This document shows, piece by piece, positions 188-30,087 of a stretch of 32,000 nt of DNA. This DNA comes from Ureaplasma parvum serovar 3 str. ATCC 27815 (GTDB lineage: Bacteria; Bacillota_I; Bacilli_A; Mycoplasmatales; Mycoplasmoidaceae). The stretch is taken from contig NC_010503.1 in assembly GCF_000019345.1 (NCBI RefSeq), positions 120,001 through 152,000 of the forward strand, written 5' to 3'. The notes beneath the pieces are model-generated. The model did no database searches and was not told where the DNA came from. It saw only the letters and a list, made by a program, of their open reading frames with translations. The stretch's first letter is position 1. Each line of letters starts with the position of its first letter. Both the position numbers and the translations under genes were made by a program.

Positions 188-3100
188 TTAACCACGGAAT
201 TTTTCAAAATATTCGAGTAATTTTTCAGTAGCATTTTCTTTTATTTTAGACCTATTACTATTCTGATTACTTTTTTTAAAAAAAGAGGTAGGAGGCATTA
301 AATTAACAATATCTACTCCATTTTCATTAAATTCATTATTTTCAAATGCTTTTTTCATAAATTCAAATGTTTTTTTGTTATCTAATTTATTTTCATTAAT
401 TATTTTTATAAGCTCACTTTCTTTTTTATTTTTAATAAACTTACTCCATTCATTAAAAATATCAATTTCATCCTTATTAGGTAGTTTATTAATTTCATTA
501 ACAAATTCAATAATTAAATCTTTCTTTTTTCGCGCTTTTAGACTAGATAAAATATCTCTTTCTAGATCGTGATATTTAACTTCTTTTAGATCTTTTTTGA
601 GCTTTTCATTCATTAACTTAAGAATATAATCAACACCAATATCTTGTTGACTAATTAATTCAATTTTAAAATCAAGATCACTAACAATGCTATCTGTTTC
701 CATACGTTTTTTATCTTGATATTTATCACGCAACCCGATATATATACTTTGATAATCTTGCATTTCTGTACCAATAAGATCATCGTTTTGTTCAAATTCA
801 CTAAATTGTGAAAGCAAATTTTTATATTTTAAAATATCACCAAAAAGTTTAATAAAAATTCTTTCCTCTTCTTTTGTTCCATTAAAAGGAATTTTAAAGT
901 TACTTTTTAATTCTTCTACTAAGTTTCGATAACCTTGTATATATTGATTATCTTCATTATAATATCCTTCATAATATTCTTTAAATGATCTTAAAATAGC
1001 GATCGAAGAATTAATATTGCTCTCTGATGAAAATAATCTTAAAGCTTCATTCACTTCATCTTCTAAATTTATGAAAAAGACAATATTACCATTTGATTTA
1101 ACACCATTAAGAATTCGATTGGTTCGCGACATTGCTTGAATTAAACTATGATATTTTAGTTTTTTGTCCAATCATAATGTATTTAAAGTTGTTGCATCAA
1201 AACCTGTTAAAAACATATTAACAACGATTGCTATATCTAAGCTTCGATCCTTTAATCTCAAGCTAAAGTCTTTATAGTAATTATTAAAATTAGCATTATC
1301 TGTTGAGTATGATGTCCCAAACATTTCATTATAATCTTTAATCGCTTCATCAAGAAAATTACGTGAATCTAAATCAAGTTGATTAGTGTTTTCGTTATTC
1401 TCATCTAATAGTTCAAAATTAGAAAGTTCATTATCATTACTTTCTTGTTCGCTTGGTAAATAACTATAAATTAATCCAATTTTTAATTTTTCTTCTTGAG
1501 GAAATTTTTGTTGTTGTTTTTTAAATTCTGAATAATATATTTTAGCTGCATTAATAGAAGAGCAAGCTAGAATAGAATTAAATCCATTTAGTGTTGTTAA
1601 TACTTTATTTTCGCTTAATTTATTTCTGCTAGTAATAACTTCATTTATATTAGCAATCTTATTATGTTCAAAAAATTCTTCATTTCTTTTGGTTAAACGA
1701 TTATAGTTTTTTAAAATAAAATCAACAATTTCAGAAATACGAATCGGATTTTCCAAAGCTTCTTTTTTATCTATTCCAGTTGATGATGTTTCATCGTCAA
1801 TGTCATCTTTTTCGCTAAGTGTTTTATAATACTCCGTTCTAAAACCTAAAACATTACCATCACGAATAGCTTTATCAATTGTATATTTATGTAAACAAGC
1901 TCCAAAAAGATGCTCTGTTGTAAAGAAAATATTTTTATTTTTGACATTACTATTTTCTTCTAAAATAGGTGTGCCTGTAAACCCAAAAATCATATATTTT
2001 TTAAAAGATTTTTTAGTAATTTTTTTATGTAAATCACCAAATTGAGAACGATGACATTCATCAAAAACAAGAACAACATTTTTAGAATAAATAGGATGTT
2101 TTGGATTTTTACTAATGAATATGCCAAGTTTTTGAATGGTTGTAATAATAATTTTATTCTCTTGATTTCCAATTTGCTTAGCTAGTTCATTAACATTTGT
2201 ATTAGCACTAACACATCCTTTAGAATACTTTTCATATTCTTTTGTTGTTTGATAGTCTAAATCTTTTCGATCAACAACAAATAGAACCTTATCCACACCT
2301 TCAATTTCTTTTGCTAAAGCGGCAGTTTTAAATGATGTAAGAGTTTTTCCGCTTCCTGTTGTGTGTCAAATATAACCACCAGCGCCTGTAGTTCCTAATA
2401 ATTTTTTATCATTTAAAGAAATCTTAATTCGATTAATAATTCTTTCAGTTGCAACAATTTGGTATGGTCTTAAAACCATTAACGTATTATCGCTTGTAAA
2501 AACACAATATTTTGTCAAAATATTTAAAATAGTATGTTTAGCAAAAAAGGTCTGACAAAAATCGATTAAATCAAGAATTTGATTATTTTTTGAATCAGCT
2601 CAGTATGATGTAAATTCAAAAGAATTACTTGTTTTTTTAGAGTTTGTATTATTTCTTTCTTTTATAGAAGTTTCTCTAGTTGTATTTGAATAATATTTAG
2701 TTTGTGTACCATTAGAAATAACATAAATTTGCGTGTAAAGATATAAATCTGTAAACGAATGATTTGCATATCTTTTAATTTGATTAAAAGCTTCTTTAAG
2801 ATTAGTTCCTCGTCTTTTTAGTTCAATATGTACTAATGGAAGTCCATTAATCAAAATAGACACATCATATCGTGTTTTTTGTTGATTATCTAAATTGTTA
2901 TTTTGATATTGATTAATAACTTGAATAGAATTATTATGAATATTATTTTTATCAATTATCTTTATATTTTTGGTGATACTATCTTTATCTTTTTTTAAAG
3001 GGTAGCTATAATCTTCATGAATTTTTTTTGATCTTGCTTCAATTCCATCATTAGGATTTAATAAATAAGTACTTAAAAAAGATTCTCATTCATTATTAGT

Positions 3101-3325
3101 AAATTGATAATTATTAAGTTTTTCGATTTGTTTTCTTAAATTATTTTTTAAATCATTATTATTTTTAATAGGTAAGTATTCATAACCTTGTGCAATTAAT
3201 AATTTAATAAATGTTTCTTCTAATTCAGCTTCACTTTCAAATTTATTCGAATGAACTTTAATTGATTTAAATTCAGCAACAACCGTTGAATTTTCATGTT
3301 CTGCTAATAGTACCTTATTTTCCAT
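188..3325 (-). CDS. hsdR: Type I restriction enzyme R subunit (HsdR), apparently intact, 1045 aa under code 4
   Basis: Track ORFs 188-1171, 1172-2296, 2600-2863 and 3086-3325 share one frame. I translated the gap 2297-2599 and the 1172 junction by hand and they are broken only by TGA. The gap 2864-3085 is in phase but was not translated by hand. Motifs read: LRPYQIVATERI, GGYIWHTTGSGKT (motif I, with W encoded by TGA), VFDECHRSQ (motif II), QAMSRTNR (motif VI). ATG at 3323-3325 is preceded by AAGGAG; TAA at 188-190. Confidence 0.95.
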
Positions 3326-3345: not shown

Positions 3346-3867
3346 TTAATATTTTTTAAAATCTAATAATTTATTTCGATAGTATTCATATTGTTTTTTG
3401 CGTTGTTTGATTTCAAAAGGTAATCCTACGCCAATATCTTTTGTATATGCTTCTAATTTATCTAGGATTTCAACAATTTTATTTTGGATTGAAATGTGAG
3501 GGATAGGAATTAATAATTCAATAATCTCTATCATGTTTGGATGTTTTACAGATGCACCACGATAATTTTCTTCAATAAGCATTTTATTTGCTATCAAAAA
3601 ATAGTAAATAAATTTTAAATTACATTCTTTTTTGTTTTTTTGTGAAAAAATTATATTTAAACTATCTATGAAATAACCATTATAGTATTTTATTATTGGA
3701 GAACCACCAGATGGCAAAGCAATTATTTCGCCATAATTAATATTATTATCATTTTCATTATATTTTATATATCCATCATACAATCCTGTTGAAAGAAGTT
3801 TAACATTACCAAAATTACACTTTTCATATCGTTTTAATTCGTTTGCAGATATATGCTTAAATGACAA
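3346..3867 (-). CDS. hsdS: HsdS module A: one target-recognition domain plus a C-terminal conserved region. It has no ATG start, and its frame is open upstream to 4029.
   Basis: The module ends ...LIPIPHISIQNKIVEILDKLEAYTKDIGVGLPFEIKQRKKQYEYYRNKLLDF, the HsdS conserved-region signature. The frame extended upstream with TGA=Trp reads ...LSRDYIWTLKNIYEKLVQNNVKYKKLWEIVNFDKKFKG, a typical central linker plus TRD start. The M in the ORF track is really a TTG. Confidence 0.85.
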   Translation of the reverse strand: MSFKHISANELKRYEKCNFGNVKLLSTGLYDGYIKYNENDNNINYGEIIALPSGGSPIIKYYNGYFIDSLNIIFSQKNKKECNLKFIYYFLIANKMLIEENYRGASVKHPNMIEIIELLIPIPHISIQNKIVEILDKLEAYTKDIGVGLPFEIKQRKKQYEYYRNKLLDFKKY

Positions 3868-4004
3868 TATTTCATTTTGTTTTTCTTTTGGAACTCCTTT
3901 AAATTTTTTGTCAAAATTAACTATTTCTCAAAGTTTTTTATATTTAACATTGTTTTGAACTAATTTTTCATATATATTCTTTAATGTTCAAATGTAATCC
4001 CTAC

Positions 4005-4316
4005 TTAGCTCTCTCTCTCTCGTGCTATATTATCAAAGTCTAATAATTTATTACGATAATATTCGTATTGTTTTTTACGTTGTTCGATTTCAAGAGGAAG
4101 TCCAGTATTAATATCTTTCGTATATGTTTCCAATTTATCTAAAATCTCAACAATTTTATTTTGGATTGAAATGGGCGGAATAGGGATTATGATTTCTTGC
4201 ATAACATTACTCATTAATTTTGGATTTCCTGATGCTTGATTTACATGTTTTTTAGTAATTTTTCTCAAAATAAAGCTCAAATATTTTGTGTTTAAATTAG
4301 AATTAATGAACTTGAT
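4005..4316 (-). CDS. hsdS: HsdS module B: the C-terminal third of a TRD plus a conserved region, 5'-truncated with no start codon
   Basis: The open frame from 4316 reads KFINSNLNTKYLSFILRKITKKHVNQASGNPKLMSNVMQEIIIPIPPISIQNKIVEILDKLETYTKDINTGLPLEIEQRKKQYEYYRNKLLDFDNIARERES*. The track ORF 4005-4280 starts at a TTG. TAA at 4005-4007. Confidence 0.85.
   Translation of the reverse strand: MKFINSNLNTKYLSFILRKITKKHVNQASGNPKLMSNVMQEIIIPIPPISIQNKIVEILDKLETYTKDINTGLPLEIEQRKKQYEYYRNKLLDFDNIARERES
4009..4021 (-). repeat. (GA)6G dinucleotide tract (CTCTCTCTCTCTC on the plus strand) at the junction of hsdS modules B and A
   Basis: Read directly from the sequence. It encodes the RERE of ...DNIARERES* at the end of module B. 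Confidence 0.95.
4147..4188. repeat. left copy of a 42-bp perfect inverted repeat (partner at 5807-5848) in the hsdS conserved region
   Basis: The reverse complement of 4147-4188 equals 5807-5848 exactly (AATCCCTATTCCGCCCATTTCAATCCAAAATAAAATTGTTGA, encoding IPIPPISIQNKIVE). Module A shares 27 bp of it as a direct repeat at 3470-3496. Confidence 0.95.
4295..4305 (+). repeat. AATTAGAATTA core, copy 1 (breakpoint of the hsdM 3' part on plus and of hsdS module B on minus)
   Basis: Exact 11-mer shared with 6829-6839 in direct orientation and with 6290-6300 in inverted orientation. It has the dyad form AATT-AG-AATT. Confidence 0.8.
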
Positions 4317-4346
4317 CTAGGTAATTATCAAGATAATACAATCGAT

Positions 4347-5393
4347 GTGTTCGGTGATGCTTATGAATACTTAATGAGTATGTATGCTGCAAATGCAGGT
4401 AAATCAGGGGGAGAATTTTTCACCCCTCAAGAAGTTAGTGAACTATTAGTAGAATTAACATTAATTGATTTTAATAATGAAAATAAAGATGTTAGAAGAA
4501 AAATTGGAAAAGTTTATGATCCATGTTGTGGTTCTGGATCATTACTTTTAAAGTATGCAAAATTAAATGAAGGAGTTAAATTTTATGGTCAAGAAATTAA
4601 TCTTACTACGTATAATTTAGCAAGAATTAATATGTTTTTGCACAATATAGGTTATGATAAATTTGATATCAAATTAGGTGATACATTACTAGATCCTAAA
4701 CATAATGATGATAAACCTTTTGATGCAATTGTTTCAAATCCTCCATATTCAACAAAATGGGAGGGAAAATCAAATCCTTTATTAGCTAACGATGAGCGAT
4801 TTCATGTTACTCAATTAGCACCTAAAGGAAAAGCTGATTTTGCTTTTGTATTGCATATACTTCATAATTTATCTTCTAGTGGAACAGCAGCTATAGTTAT
4901 GTTTCCAGGAACTTTATATCGAGATCATGCAGAACAAGATATTAGAAAATATTTAGTTGATAATGTTAATGTTGTAGATAGTGTGATTCAATTACCAGAT
5001 AATCTGTTTTTTGGAACAAGTATTTCAACATGTATTATAGTTTTAAGAAAAAACAAAAACAACAATGATAATGCTAATGGTATCTTGTTTGTTGATGCAT
5101 CAAAAGAATTTGTTAAATCTGGTATCAAAAACAAATTAACCAATGCTAATATTAAAAAAATAGTTGATACGATTCGTTTCAAAAAAGAAGTAACTTATTT
5201 TTCAAAACTTGTATCACGAGAAGAAGTTAAAAATAAAAACTATAATTTATCAGTTAACACATATGTGGAAAAAGAAGACACGTCAGAAAAAATTGATATT
5301 AAATTATTAAATATGCAAATTAAAGAAATTGTGGCTAAAATCGAAAAGTTAAGAAAAGAAATTGATGAAATTGTTTTAGAATTAGAAGAATAA
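4347..5393 (+). CDS. hsdM: Type I R-M methyltransferase HsdM, catalytic 3' part only (N-terminal domain missing). The frame is open from 4296.
   Basis: The frame opens as IRINELDLGNYQDNTIDVFGDAYEYLMSMYAANAGKSGGEFFTPQEV, followed by DPCCGSGSLLL (AdoMet motif I) and the NPPY motif (VSNPPYS). There is no ATG or SD; the track start is a GTG. TAA at 5391-5393, 3 nt before the hsdS ATG. Confidence 0.9.
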   Translation: MFGDAYEYLMSMYAANAGKSGGEFFTPQEVSELLVELTLIDFNNENKDVRRKIGKVYDPCCGSGSLLLKYAKLNEGVKFYGQEINLTTYNLARINMFLHNIGYDKFDIKLGDTLLDPKHNDDKPFDAIVSNPPYSTKWEGKSNPLLANDERFHVTQLAPKGKADFAFVLHILHNLSSSGTAAIVMFPGTLYRDHAEQDIRKYLVDNVNVVDSVIQLPDNLFFGTSISTCIIVLRKNKNNNDNANGILFVDASKEFVKSGIKNKLTNANIKKIVDTIRFKKEVTYFSKLVSREEVKNKNYNLSVNTYVEKEDTSEKIDIKLLNMQIKEIVAKIEKLRKEIDEIVLELEE

Positions 5394-5396
5394 ATT

Positions 5397-6302
5397 ATGA
5401 ATAAAATTGAAAAATTAATTAATGAGTTCTGCCCTAATGGAGTGGAGTTTAAAAAATTAAAAAATATAATTACAGTGGCTCCTAAATCACCTTTTGGAGT
5501 TACAAAACTTTTAAAAATGGAAAAGGGAAATTATTTAACAATAACATCAGGGAAGAAATCATTTTATGTTGACAATTTTTTAGTTGATGGAGAATATATA
5601 TTTGTTAATGATGGCGGTCAAGCAGATATAAAATATAATTTTGGAAAAACAATGTATTCTGATCATATATTCGCATTCAAAGTAAATGAATATAACACAA
5701 AATATCTTTACTTCTATCTATTAAATATTTCTAATTTTATTAATAAAAAATTGTTTATAGGTAGTACATTAAAAAATTTAAATAAAAAAGAATTTTTAAA
5801 TCTTGCAATCCCTATTCCGCCCATTTCAATCCAAAATAAAATTGTTGAAATATTAGACAAGTATACAGAATTAGAAACAGAATTAGAAACAGAATTAGAA
5901 ACAGAATTAGAACTTAGAAATAAGCAGTATATATATTATCGCAATGAATTACTAAACTTTAATAAAAATCAAACATTATTAAAGAAAATAATGGACAGTG
6001 ATGATATAAAATCTATTGATCATAAAATTGAGTTTAAAAAGATTGAATATGTGTGTGAAATAAAAAGAGGTCAAGTATACTCTAAGGAATTTATTAATTC
6101 TAATAAAGGAAATTATCCAGTATATTCATCACAAAGTTTAAATGATGGTGTTTTAGGAAATATTAATAAATATGATTTTGATGGTGAATATGTTACTTGA
6201 ACTACAGATGGTGCATATGCGGGAACTGTTTTCTATAGAAAAGGCAAATTTTCAATAACAAATGTGTGTGGAATATTAAAGGTGTTTGATAATTCTAATT
6301 AA
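5397..6302 (+). CDS. hsdS: HsdS module C: TRD1, central conserved region and the N-terminal part of TRD2. It is 3'-truncated and lacks the C-terminal conserved region.
   Basis: The ATG lies immediately after hsdM. Sequence read: ...AIPIPPISIQNKIVEILDKYTELETELETELETELELRNKQYIYYRNELLNF, then a second TRD start, KIEFKKIEYVCEIKRG. One TGA (6199-6201) is read as W. The module ends ...GILKVFDNSN-TAA (6300-6302) without the IPIPP/YYRN region. Confidence 0.9.
5807..5848. repeat. right copy of the 42-bp perfect inverted repeat (partner at 4147-4188)
   Basis: See the entry for 4147-4188. Confidence 0.95.
5865..5912 (+). repeat. 4 perfect tandem copies of the 12-bp unit ACAGAATTAGAA, encoding (TELE)4 in the hsdS central conserved region
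   Basis: Units at 5865-5876, 5877-5888, 5889-5900 and 5901-5912 are identical. Confidence 0.95.
6290..6300 (-). repeat. AATTAGAATTA core, copy 2 (inverted, TAATTCTAATT on plus) at the truncated 3' end of hsdS module C
   Basis: Exact reverse complement of copies 1 and 3. With flanks it shares 14 bp (TTAATTAGAATTAT) with copy 3. Confidence 0.8.
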
Positions 6303-6340
6303 CAAACTTAAAAATATAAATTTATAAAGGGTTTATAAAT

Positions 6341-6904
6341 ATGGATAATAAAAAAGAAATTGAACGAAACAATTTACATGCAACAATTTGAAAAATTGCT
6401 GATGAGCTCCGTGGCGCAATTGATGGATGAGATTTTAAACAATATGTTTTAGGAATATTATTTTATCGATATATATCAGAAAACTTAACTAAATATATTA
6501 ACGATAATGAGCATAAAATAGGTGATCATGATTTTAACTATGAAACATGTAATGATGATGATGTAGATGAAGAAATGAAAATAACCTTAATTAAAGAAAA
6601 AGGTTTTTATATTAAGCCGTCATTTTTGTTTGCTAATATTGTTAAAAATGCTGAAAAAAATGAAAATTTAAATGAAACTTTGGAAACTGTTTTTAACAAT
6701 ATTGAAGGATCATCCTCTGGTTATGATTCTGAAAAAAATTTAAAAGGGTTATTTAATGATATTGATGTTAATAATAGTCGTTTAGGAAGTACTACACAAG
6801 AAAGAAATAAAAGACTAGCAAGAATTTTAATTAGAATTATATATAAAAATATGGATTTATTAATTTTAAAACCATATATAAATAAAAAAGAGATTCCTAA
6901 TTAA
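6341..6904 (+). CDS. hsdM: HsdM N-terminal domain fragment (5' part of hsdM) ending in 21 unrelated codons
   Basis: ATG at 6341. With two TGA=Trp codons it reads MDNKKEIERNNLHATIWKIADELRGAIDGWDFKQYVLGILFYRYISENL... (HsdM_N signature), then ...SRLGSTTQERNKRLARILIRI, then a non-homologous tail IYKNMDLLILKPYINKKEIPN*. Confidence 0.9.
6829..6839 (+). repeat. AATTAGAATTA core, copy 3 (breakpoint at the end of the hsdM 5' part)
   Basis: Exact 11-mer. It sits in the same codon phase (A|ATT|AGA|ATT|A) as copy 1. Confidence 0.8.
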
Positions 6905-6916
6905 CTTAGTAATCTC
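6884..6916 (-). terminator. rho-independent terminator for the convergent Cys/His-rich gene
   Basis: The hairpin GAGATT-C-CTAA / TTAG-T-AATCTC (6890-6916) has an A-run at 6884-6889, which is a U-run on the minus-strand transcript. Confidence 0.6.
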
Positions 6917-6941
6917 TATCATTTAATTAAATACTTTTTAA

Positions 6942-7508
6942 TTAATGTTGGTGACTGTGATGATGATGGTGTTCATGTTCGTGACCACCACAGCAATCAT
7001 CTTTAGTTCCACCACAACATTCTTCTTGGGTTTCTGATGTTTTTGTTTCCGAGTCACAGCAAACTTCATGTTCATGTTCGTGACCACCACAACAATCATC
7101 TTTAGCTCCGCCACAGCATTCTTCTTCAACTTTTACTTCTGAATTACAACAAGCTTCATTTTCTTCATCGCTACAGCATTCATCTTCACAACAGCAATCT
7201 TCTTCATAATCATCATCTTCACTAAAATGAATATCTAAGAAAACTTCTGATAAATCTAATACTGTATCATTAGAAATTAAAAAAGCATCAATTTTTGCTT
7301 GTAACTCTTCTTTTTTAAGATCAAATAAAATGTTTGTTGATTCAAAATCAGCATAATTAATATACAACTCTGATCCTAGATCGCTTGTTTTATAAGCTTC
7401 ATCTCCACCAAGTTCTAAATATGAATCAATATCTTCTGGAAGAATATTAATTGTACGTGCGTTGTCTAAATTAATGTAAGAAACACCTGTTTTAATGTAT
7501 TTAGCCAT
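6942..7508 (-). CDS. acidic protein of unknown function with a Cys/His-rich C-terminal tail (putative metal-binding)
   Basis: A 188-aa ORF with an ATG start and AAGGAG 7 nt upstream. The last 86 residues contain 17 Cys (all in CC or CCC runs) and 12 His, including two EECCGG(A/T)[12 protein letters not shown] units and a terminal HHHHHSHQH. Confidence 0.8.
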
Positions 7509-22252: not shown

Positions 22253-22349
22253 AAATATTAATTTAAGGTTGTTAAAAGGTTCTCATTTTTCAATATAAAC
22301 GTTAGTTTATTATATAATTAATATATAAGAATTTTATAATGGGGTAGTT

Positions 22350-22952
22350 ATGAATTATAAATATAGTGCTGAAGAAAAACAAATTATTTATAACTATATT
22401 TTAAGAGAATATGGGCAAGTGGACCACATTATATTTTTATCAAATGAACATATACGTGTTCCGATTGAATATGATATTTTAGTTATTAAAAAACAAAACT
22501 TACAAATATTAATGACTTTTGGACTAGGTGCTTTTAAATCACATAATCACGAAGAAAATACGCAAGAGCGTGCTGAGATTTTTTTAGAATTACCTGTTGA
22601 TTGAGATTTTAATAAACATGAAAACATGTGACCAGTTCATTTTTTAATTAATATCGTTAAATATTCTTATTCAAATCATTTAACACTAAAATGATTACAA
22701 ACCTTCATTAATCCCTCTTATTTTAATAAATCAAATAAAATTGCTGGGTTTTTAGATTTATCTTGATATGGCGAGAATTCTTTAGAGTGTAAAATTAATA
22801 ATGATTTTTTTGTAAGTTTTTATCAAATTTTAATTATTGATGATGAAGAATTATTCTATGCAAAAACAAATGGAATTCGTGCTTTAAGTAAATTCTTTGA
22901 TGATGGTAAATCAAGAATTGTTGATTTAAATCGAAAATCATTTGTTAAATAA
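22350..22952 (+). CDS. hypothetical protein, possibly SUFU-like (suppressor-of-fused domain) family
   Basis: The 200-aa frame runs through several TGA=Trp codons. The pattern ...LMTFGLGAF...ERAEIFLELPVDWDF...ENMWPVHFLINIVKYSY...FYQILIIDDEELFYAKTNGIRAL... resembles bacterial SUFU-domain proteins. That family assignment is from memory only. Confidence 0.6.
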
Positions 22953-24165: not shown

Positions 24166-25113
24166 ATGAATTTAAAAGAAATTAAAATTAAAATTAACGA
24201 TGCCAATCAACGTTTAGATCGTTTTTTATTAAAAAATTTTCCTAATTTATCAAGAATTGCTGTTTATAAAATAATTAGAACAAAAGATGTTAAAGTTAAT
24301 CATAAGAAAGTTGATCATAATTATTTATTAAAAGAAAATGATGTTGTTAGTATTTATGCTAAGGAGAATTTTTTAGAAAAAAAAGTTGACTTATCTTTTG
24401 CTAATGCTAAAGATGAATTAGATATTATATATGAAGATAAAAATATTTTAGTTGTTCACAAACCGATTGGTTTAATTGTTCATGAAGATAATAGATATAA
24501 AAATGACACTTTACAAAATAGAATTAAGAAATATTTAGTTAAAAAGGATGAATATCATCCTTTTGATGAAAGTGCTTTTGTTCCTAGCTTATGTCATCGT
24601 TTAGATTTAAATACAAGTGGATTAATTGTTGCAGCTAAAACTGCAAATGCTTTAAGAGTAATTACTGAAATGTTTAAAAATAATGATGTGATTCGAATTT
24701 ATAAATGTTTAACATACAATCAATTACCTAAAAATAATGATGTTATTTATAATTTCATGTATAAAGCTGATGATAACACAATGATTGTACAAAATTTTAA
24801 AACAAAATTTAATAAAACAGCAATTACCAAATATACATATATAGATAAGTATAAAAAATATTTTATTTATGACATTGAACTATTAACTGGAAGAACCCAC
24901 CAAATACGAGCAGTTTTAAATTTTTTGCATGCACCAATTGTTGGTGAACAAAAATACATCACTAAAGATATTGATAAGAATCAAAATTATATGTATCAAT
25001 GTTTAGTATCATATAAGATCAAATTTATTAATTTAAAGAAATATCAATGTGAAGAATTAAATTATTTAGAGAATAAAGAATTTAGAATAAAAAATATTTG
25101 ATTTTTAAAATAA
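24166..25113 (+). CDS. RluA-family (RluC/RluD-like) 23S rRNA pseudouridine synthase
   Basis: N-terminal S4-like region (RLDRFLLKNFPNLSRIAVYKIIRTKDVKVN), catalytic HRLDLNTSGLIV, and GRTHQIRAVL. One TGA at 25099-25101 is read as W. TAA at 25111-25113. Confidence 0.9.
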
Positions 25114-25179
25114 AAAATCTATATTGAATTAAGAATTTAAAAATATAAAAATACTTAATTAAAATTTAAAATAAATATC

Positions 25180-25209
25180 TTGACATTTTCTACACTTTTT
25201 TAATATAAT
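25180..25209 (+). promoter_or_regulatory. rRNA operon promoter P1
   Basis: TTGACA (25180-25185), an 18-nt spacer, then TATAAT (25204-25209). Confidence 0.6.
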
Positions 25210-25262
25210 CTTCTAGTGCTTTTAAGCAATTAGTTAAATAATTTAAAAAAATAAAATATTTC

Positions 25263-25296
25263 TTGACATTTTAAAAAAAATTGTTTATACTATAAT
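25263..25296 (+). promoter_or_regulatory. rRNA operon promoter P2
   Basis: TTGACA (25263-25268), a 17-nt spacer, then TATACT (25286-25291), which overlaps TATAAT at 25291-25296. Confidence 0.55.
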
Positions 25297-25368
25297 GTAT
25301 TGTGTTTAAAGATTATTAATAATTAATCACAATAAGAATGTTCTTTGAAAACTAAATAGAATCCGTCA

Positions 25369-26887
<1,519 letters not shown>

Positions 26888-27177
26888 TCGGAGTAAATTT
26901 TTAATTTACGTACTAATAAGTGTACATTTTTATTAAAATCCATATGAATATAAGCCACTTTTTTAAATATTTTTAAAAATTCATATGGTCGGATTCTATT
27001 TAGTTTTGAGAGTTTATTCTCTCCCATAATAATTAATTTATTATGGATGATCGATCTTTGAAAACTGAATAATTATCAACAAATCTTTCTAATCATTGAC
27101 ATTAAGTTGTCAGTGAACAGAAACTATATTAAATTAAATATAGTTAACAATCATAAATAAACAACTTTAAGGATTTA

Positions 27178-30087
<2,910 letters not shown>

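Follow-up and report, generated by a model that had tools for sequence, protein, structure and literature searches.

Phase-variable switching in Type I restriction-modification (R-M) systems by inversion at repeats in hsd genes is known from the SpnD39III (ivr/cod) system of Streptococcus pneumoniae and from the hsdS invertons (PMC4948785, PMC7672463). In these systems the inversions are confined to hsdS and produce alternative specificities, hsdM is always intact, and an invertase gene is present in the locus. Here we analyse the genes UU095-UU101 in a 32-kb stretch of Ureaplasma parvum serovar 3 DNA (the window; G+C content 28%; translation table 4, TGA = Trp), where hsdM and hsdS lie in pieces. 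Our results indicate that UU095-UU100 is probably a Type IC R-M operon with a built-in multi-site inversion switch. Unlike the inversions in S. pneumoniae, those of UU095-UU100 are not confined to hsdS, as one site (B) lies in hsdM and another (A) is intergenic.

Surveys of Type I invertons and of programmed inversions describe hsdS-only events (PMC7672463, PMC9881135). A first reading of the window, made from its letters (the sequence-only reading), had called a recombination site inside hsdM unusual, and these surveys and papers bear this out. UU095-UU100 would escape the published inverton screen, in which an invertase had to lie no more than 2 kb away (PMC7672463, PMC9881135). A published description of the three-core geometry reported below, of an hsdM split by inversion or of its restoration was not found in a search that covered the subscription literature only in part.

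A parallel among mollicutes is offered by the hsd1 and hsd2 loci of Mycoplasma pulmonis with HvsR. There, a Type I locus is likewise inverted site-specifically at short intragenic sites, and the recombinase is common to an antigen switch (vsa in that species; mba/UU172 in U. parvum, if XerC is the enzyme). Studies of these genes by Dybvig in 1998 and Sitaraman in 2002 reportedly locate the sites in the hsdS genes, where inversion mainly reshuffles specificity. On the other hand, the placement of sites A and B in U. parvum splits M, and the main outcome would be ON/OFF switching.

In the same species, the mba and UU172 loci (PMC3047005, PMC3599477) recombine at short inverted sites with the pattern ATT-NN-AATTATCAAACA. 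Inversion there also moves the 5' end of a gene and yields chimeric open reading frames (ORFs), and the recombinase gene lies elsewhere. The two loci differ from the hsd genes in that their targets are surface lipoproteins and their repeats are 24-41 bp long and identical within a pair, whereas the hsd sites have 11 bp common to three sites, a central AG and a putative XerC action.

The closest solved relatives of the M and S subunits are those of the Type IC systems EcoR124I and EcoR124II. M. hominis and M. faucium possess tandem hsdM-hsdS-hsdS'-hsdR operons (PMC2751442, PMC11062135) that share the operon order and have extra co-oriented hsdS cassettes with direct repeats; they differ by having no core sites. 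The split hsdM of M. hominis is reported to be due to a frameshift and not to inversion, and for related proteins values of 74-81% (M) and 65-70% (R) are given (PMC2751442). Most ureaplasma R-M systems have been termed incomplete; two orientations of the hsdS pair were noted within one serovar 1 assembly and further work was urged (Paralanov 2012, PMC3511179).

Core sites and the rebuilt operon

The ORF carrying the HsdM_N domain (6341-6904; exact protein AAF30506.1) reads ...NKRLARILIRI and then runs through 21 unrelated codons, and the catalytic hsdM ORF (4296-5393, plus strand) opens with IRINELDLGNY and has no start codon. The hsdS ORF (5397-6302, plus strand) terminates after ...GILKVFDNSN, and the minus-strand ORF 4005-4316, which comprises module B and core, reads IKFINSNLNTKYLSFILRK... 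(Table 1). The coordinates and peptides of these breaks, as quoted in the sequence-only reading, are all correct under table 4. Its statement that the fragments lack other disruptions also holds, with zero additional stops or frameshifts in the hsd fragments of the window.

The 11-bp core AATTAGAATTA has only three exact copies in the 32 kb, two on the plus strand (c1 and c3) and one on the minus strand (c2, as TAATTCTAATT), and each of them coincides with an hsd breakpoint. Dinucleotide shuffles contain a mean of 0.38 copies, and three copies were reached in 1/100 of them. The three-breakpoint observation is real and far beyond chance. A fourth copy with 10/11 core bases (c4, TAATTCTAATA), used as a breakpoint in one strain, had been missed when the three core breakpoints were first recognised. 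The further argument that the breakpoints are in phase adds nothing, because conservative recombination restores the frames whatever the phase. Site c2 is the only one to take part in every inversion, and it is near-palindromic with its arms (GTTTGtTAATT-AG-AATTAtCAAAC).

Inverting 4306-6289 and 6301-6828 in silico results in minus-strand ORFs of 528 (hsdM) and 397 (hsdS) codons. The order hsdM-hsdS-module A-hsdR is thereby restored by two in-place inversions with the junctions first noted from the sequence, and it occurs naturally in five samples (L011-L015). The rebuilt HsdM has the Pfam domains HsdM_N at residues 12-163 and N6_Mtase at 178-494; the break at residue 166 falls between the two and therefore in the inter-domain linker. 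The alignment with EcoR124 HsdM (7bst_D; E = 1.9e-162, residues 8-527 vs 8-514) is gap-free at the junction. An HsdM_N plus N6_Mtase architecture collinear with EcoR124 is obtained only after the two inversions, or naturally in L011.

In the rebuilt HsdS, Methylase_S matches in two stretches, one of which (211-373) spans the junction and extends from position 4 to position 168 of the 168-position profile. The two conserved regions can each be aligned with EcoR124 HsdS, and the 397-amino-acid (aa) protein shows the two target recognition domains (TRDs) and two conserved regions of an HsdS of about 400 aa. Joining module B to 5397-6289 completes the Methylase_S profile, and the same joining is present in L011. 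Because the rebuilt M and S align to EcoR124 subunits, the locus is assigned from its sequence to the Type IC (EcoR124-like) R-M systems, with predicted methylation and restriction activity.

Natural arrangements and their recurrence

We compared 30 related loci (labelled in the style L001) and scanned 20 related loci for junctions, with the 12 nt on the two sides of each site designated L1/R1, L2/R2 and L3/R3. These sister strains present four arrangements, so the locus is not confined to the arrangement of the window: the intact state 0, state 1 with only the hsdM 5' segment flipped, state 3 with both segments flipped, as in the window, and a c1 x c4 variant. All breakpoints fall at the core or at c4. 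In the 20 scanned loci, each junction reassorts these flanks cleanly as L-core-R and shows 0 mismatches over the 12 nt on either side; the junctions of L011-L015 neither gain nor lose bases.

In these five samples UU101, hsdM (528 aa) and hsdS lie on one strand, together with hsdR (1045 aa) on contigs that extend far enough, and BLAST of their contigs against the window gives exactly two in-place inversions. L011 differs from the in-silico rebuild by 3 single-nucleotide polymorphisms (SNPs) over the first 12,778 bases and by one GA unit, and an intact operon is known at 99.97% identity to the window. The predicted 528-aa HsdM is found verbatim in U. parvum (WP_316711711.1 / MDU7891773.1), and the 1045-aa hsdR orthologue of L011 carries the Pfam families HSDR_N, ResIII, SWI2_SNF2, T1R_D3-like and EcoR124_C. 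L006-L015, L017, L018, L020, L022 and L023 carry the segment 4306..5393 on the opposite strand, with the core as the point of joining. The invertible segment holding the hsdM 5' part (6301-6828) is inverted relative to its flank in L011-L015.

In one assembly (L020), c1 recombined with c4 to give L1-AATTAGAATTA-R4, which left an hsdS of 324 aa from which most of TRD2 is missing. The mismatched first base of c4 remained with its own left flank, and the crossover therefore took place inside ATTAGAATTA. The c1 x c4 junctions lie at 4979-4989 and about 6755-6765 of L020. Within the serovar-3 clade, arrangements are either intact or double-inverted, bar this c4 variant, though each change needs two inversions.

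Other products were looked for. The 170-aa product predicted for state 2 (...IRIIKHL) is absent from the protein collection by exact look-up, as are the exact 397-aa and 616-aa HsdS. No locus spanning the region contains a product of direct-pair deletion of the operon, and inversion has not produced another complete hsdS in any locus examined. A contig scan for hsdM relatives returned other-species relatives at 30-61% identity, none with the core in or near hsdM; the five related hsdM loci retrieved from other organisms lack it there. A search of public metagenome contigs with the 22-mer of hsdM 5' end plus core matched a single TARA scaffold (L016), which we attribute to chance because it is dissimilar to the window.

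We then built an alignment of the 7.1 kb of flank common to the loci, in which a second U. parvum lineage served as outgroup to polarise the SNPs. The ancestral haplotype is common to the window, L019 and L024, all in state 3. The intact state occurs on three separate branches, marked by 7523G with 12817C, by 7305T with 10659C, and by 7051T; the derived 7305T is shared by L013 (intact) and SV3F4 (state 3). Since the intact state sits on three branches and 7305T spans both states, the intact and the double-inverted state must have changed into each other independently three times or more among near-identical genomes. The two states are interleaved among haplotypes no more than 6 SNPs apart in the 7.1 kb, which supports, for the serovar-3 clade, the earlier proposal of a switch rather than decay. 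Contig ends near c3 were considered as a sign of within-sample mixtures and set aside as uninformative (scatter -3 to +49 nt, some contigs adapter-led).

The second lineage is 98.7-98.9% identical and has a conventional hsdS of 432-436 aa with TRD-A and a different TRD2, without module B and without site C. We collected its loci as 9 contigs via the hsdM and hsdM-N proteins and 10 places via the 432-aa hsdS, the two sets partly overlapping. One of the loci in state 1, L006, had been considered to carry a TRD1 that was swapped through nested inversions at repeats in hsdS. This reading was withdrawn: the boundary between the N-terminus and TRD-A has no long repeat, and L017 and L022 reveal a different lineage with a differently composed hsdS.

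Candidate recombinase and competing explanations

The window arrangement contains two longer inverted repeats, of 54 nt at 94% (4135-4188 / 5807-5860) and of 91 nt at 74% (3458-3548 / 5770-5860), both of which are hsdS conserved regions. Neither serves as a breakpoint in any related locus. The longer repeats are unused and the breaks are always at the 11-mer or its 10/11 copy, which argues for site-specific rather than homologous recombination, and the breakpoint pattern points to a site-specific recombinase. There is no integrase, invertase or recombinase gene among the ORFs of the 32-kb window.

For the XerC protein of U. parvum (UU222), published work showed binding to IRmba (ATTTGAATTATCAAACAGAAAAAG) and IRUU172 and, with M. 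pneumoniae as host, inversion of the mba locus (PMC3599477). The minus strand of c2, ATTAGAATTATCAAACAC, is identical at 16/18 positions to the XerC-bound IRmba ATTTGAATTATCAAACAG (IR sequences from PMC3599477) and is the only match to IRmba in the window at no more than 3 mismatches; 40 shuffles gave zero matches at no more than 2 mismatches. Compared with IRUU172, c2 agrees at 17/21 positions. With respect to the shared XerC-element motif AATTATCAAACAG, c2 matches at 16/18 and both its arms are box-like, while c1 and c3 share only the core. The leading candidate for the enzyme at the hsd sites is XerC, acting in trans; as c1 and c3 share little beyond the core, we give this assignment roughly even chances. 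The central dinucleotides are AG in the hsd core, TG in IRmba and TA in IRUU172. If identical bases are needed at these positions for strand exchange, the differences could keep the three families of sites apart.

Based on these results, we propose the following mechanism. Core sites lie upstream of hsdM (A), in inverted orientation in the hsdM inter-domain linker (B), and in hsdS TRD2 (C). Conservative site-specific recombination of A with B would flip the 5' third of hsdM, and recombination of B with C would flip the rest of hsdM plus most of hsdS. With both segments forward, hsdM (528 aa)-hsdS-hsdR is intact (putatively ON). With either segment flipped there is no gene for a complete M, and with the second flipped none for a complete S either (putatively OFF); the window represents the double-flipped state. 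The recombinase would be encoded elsewhere, the most likely candidate being the tyrosine recombinase XerC, driver of the mba and UU172 inversions. The (GA)n tract may decide between the normal end of hsdS and run-on into module A, and the 12-bp repeat adds a variation of 2-4 units in the central spacer region. Of this scheme, the sites, the exactly reciprocal junctions, several natural states and their recurrence among near-identical genomes are observed, and the enzyme, the role of the promoter, the ON/OFF phenotype and any adaptive value are inferred.

A more far-reaching version of this mechanism is conceivable, and we put it forward tentatively, as something that we rather doubt than expect. 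XerC would co-ordinate antigen switching at mba and UU172 with the ON/OFF switching of an hsdM-splitting R-M system, the TG, TA and AG dinucleotides would insulate the sites, and the (GA)n tract and the 12-bp repeat would tune specificity combinatorially. The missing intermediates would then reflect a concerted double inversion or a toxic half-assembled enzyme.

Several observations speak against the proposed switch. Single-inversion intermediates are missing in the serovar-3 clade (L011-L015, L019-L021, L024-L026), and the finished isolate genomes examined are all OFF, the intact state coming only from metagenome or read-archive assemblies. The recurrence described above is one between strains and is based on few SNPs; an exchange of the locus among strains by horizontal transfer could look like recurrent switching. 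XerC-type arms are present only on c2, and the promoter assigned to the hsdM switch (see below) is a consensus match within AT-rich DNA. In addition, the second lineage is in state 1 in all loci examined, and its hsdR is in two or three ORFs (e.g. 537 + 378 aa) wherever covered (among L017, L018, L022 and L027-L036). With its uniform OFF state and fragmented hsdR, the second-lineage system looks frozen and decaying.

The alternative that survives best, which we consider unlikely, is that the cores are fortuitous pseudo-sites of the antigen recombinase. The recurrent inversions would then be real, and would inactivate and occasionally repair a dying system in which they have no adaptive role. 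The resemblance of c2 alone to a XerC target beyond the core would fit this explanation, and the use of c4 in L020 gave a crippled hsdS and points to promiscuity; OFF states predominate, and the hsdR of the second lineage is decayed. However, a single inverted exact 11-mer is placed so as to pair with either neighbour, and the direct pair has left no deletion product. The gene pieces in the serovar-3 clade are free of other lesions, the intact state is common in in-vivo samples, and the hsdM site falls in an inter-domain linker where homologues of other species have no such sequence.

We regard as improbable a fixed ancient rearrangement followed by decay, with the split hsdM and truncated hsdS as pseudogene remnants. 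Published annotation takes this direction, listing UU098 as 'split' and UU099 as 'truncated' (Pereyre 2009, PMC2751442) and terming the systems remnants (PMC3511179), and the second lineage, with one OFF state throughout and a broken hsdR, conforms to it. For the serovar-3 clade it is contradicted by L011-L015, unless those assemblies are chimeric: the near-identical intact operon, the interleaving of states on the SNP haplotype network and the fragments without extra stops or frameshifts all stand against decay.

RecA-type or microhomology-mediated recombination at an AT-rich 11-mer, without a dedicated recombinase, is very improbable. The core is indeed short, its 10/11 copy also recombined and the window holds no recombinase gene, but the longer inverted repeats were never used, all junctions are exactly reciprocal, and c2 corresponds to a known binding site of a recombinase. 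An assembly artefact in the window is effectively excluded, as the same arrangement is present in the independent records AP014584.1, ABER01000001.1, ERZ27231560 and others, and the window proteins match AAF30501-AAF30507 of the finished genome by exact-sequence look-up, which also gave matches for FtsH and Hpt.

Chorioamnionitis and neonatal lung disease are commonly caused by U. parvum, whose Type I genes have so far been written off as remnants. If the inversion switch is a working one, the species has a phase-variable methylome and restriction barrier, hidden by the annotation in use. Type I systems could then vary in phase through breakage of hsdM, beyond the reshuffling of hsdS, and screens for hsdS repeats beside an invertase gene would miss a class of switch. 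The XerC link, if true, would tie antigenic variation to epigenetic state, in parallel to HvsR in M. pulmonis. An inversion check is warranted for genes called 'split' or 'truncated' and flanked by short in-register repeats, before they are labelled pseudogenes.

Variable tracts and other features of the window

Two further layers of the locus vary in length. The (GA)n tract has n = 6 in the window, 5 in L011, 8 in L019, L021 and L026 (all state 3) and 4 in L020. With n = 5 or 8, hsdS or module B is fused in frame to module A, resulting in ORFs of 616 or 308 aa; with n = 4 or 6 the frame ends after ARERAK or ARERES. By its sequence, this is a simple-sequence tract toggling the fusion of hsdS to module A, with a putative functional effect. 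Module A consists of an N-terminal-like stretch, TRD-A and a conserved region, without a start codon of its own, and its TRD occupies position 1 in the 432-aa hsdS of the second lineage.

The second layer is the tandem 12-bp repeat ACAGAATTAGAA, which encodes the TELE repeats and aligns to the TAEL region of EcoR124 HsdS. In EcoR124I and EcoR124II, the TAEL copy number (2 vs 3) changes the spacer of the recognised sequence. In contrast to that pair, the U. parvum repeat differs between near-identical strains, with 2, 3 or 4 units (4 in the window) and a putative effect.

The fixed flank holds a promoter-like site that reads towards the invertible hsdM 5' segment and whose -10 box adjoins the core; it is a candidate promoter at the hsdM switch. 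Promoter matches are not in excess in the region as a whole (37 vs 39.8 expected). Downstream of UU101, the Cys-rich gene, the terminator proposed by the sequence-only reading is present as a weak AT-rich hairpin with a T-run, but the terminator scan made zero calls and did not pick up this hairpin (6883-6917).

Table 1 Features of the hsd region in window coordinates, and natural arrangements of the locus given by their junctions.
Feature	Position or junctions	Strand	Description
hsdR (UU095)	188..3325	-	1045 aa, intact table-4 ORF; exact protein AAF30501.1
Module A (UU096)	3346..4008	-	hsdS-type cassette; Methylase_S E = 4.5e-9
Module B (UU097)	4005..4294	-	hsdS 3' end: end of TRD2 and C-terminal conserved region
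(GA)6 tract, (TC)6 on plus strand	4009..4021	-	separates module A from hsdS stop (module B)
Core copy c1 (flanks L1/R1)	4295..4305	+	exact 11-mer; breakpoint in L011 (L1-core-R2) and L020 (L1-core-R4)
hsdM 3' part (UU098)	4306..5393	+	catalytic domain (N6_Mtase) with C-terminal helices; core followed by 362 codons
hsdS 5' part (UU099)	5397..6289	+	N-terminus, TRD1, central conserved region, most of TRD2
Tandem 12-bp repeat x4 (TELE repeats)	5865..5912	+	HsdS central conserved region
Secondary site c4	6095..6105	-	10/11 core bases; inside hsdS TRD2
Core copy c2 (flanks L2/R2)	6290..6300 (6283..6307 with arms)	-	only inverted copy
hsdM 5' part (UU100)	6341..6828	+	start codon and HsdM_N; 166 codons counting core bases 6829-6838
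Core copy c3 (flanks L3/R3)	6829..6839	+	exact 11-mer
Promoter-like site (TTAATA, 16 nt, TATAAT)	6836..6863	-	fixed flank; consensus match only
AT-rich hairpin and T-run	6883..6917	-	downstream of UU101; -15.8 kcal/mol, z = -2.41; possible terminator
State 3 (both segments flipped)	L1R1, L2R2, L3R3		window, SV3F4 (AP014584.1), ABER01000001.1, ERZ27231560, others
State 0 (intact)	L3R1, L1R2, L2R3		L011-L015
State 1 (only hsdM 5' segment flipped)	L2R1, L3R3		L006-L010, L017, L018, L022, L023
c1 x c4 variant	L1-core-R4 and L4-TATTAGAATTA-R1		GCA_037405195.1 (L020)

The neighbouring gene UU101 (6942-7508, minus strand; AAF30507.1) encodes 188 aa with Cys-/His-rich repeats (CCGG...HEHEH) and internal 99-nt direct repeats, and its protein has no Pfam match. 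In L014 the gene is cut short by a stop codon (7051 G>T), and in SV3F4 it has lost 3 nt. Further along the window, the region from about 25000 to 30000 holds only short spurious ORFs and was taken by eye as a candidate ribosomal RNA operon. At 22329-22952, an ORF of 207 aa has a clear match to the SUFU (Suppressor of fused) domain (E = 4.4e-28), a family unusual for a mollicute.

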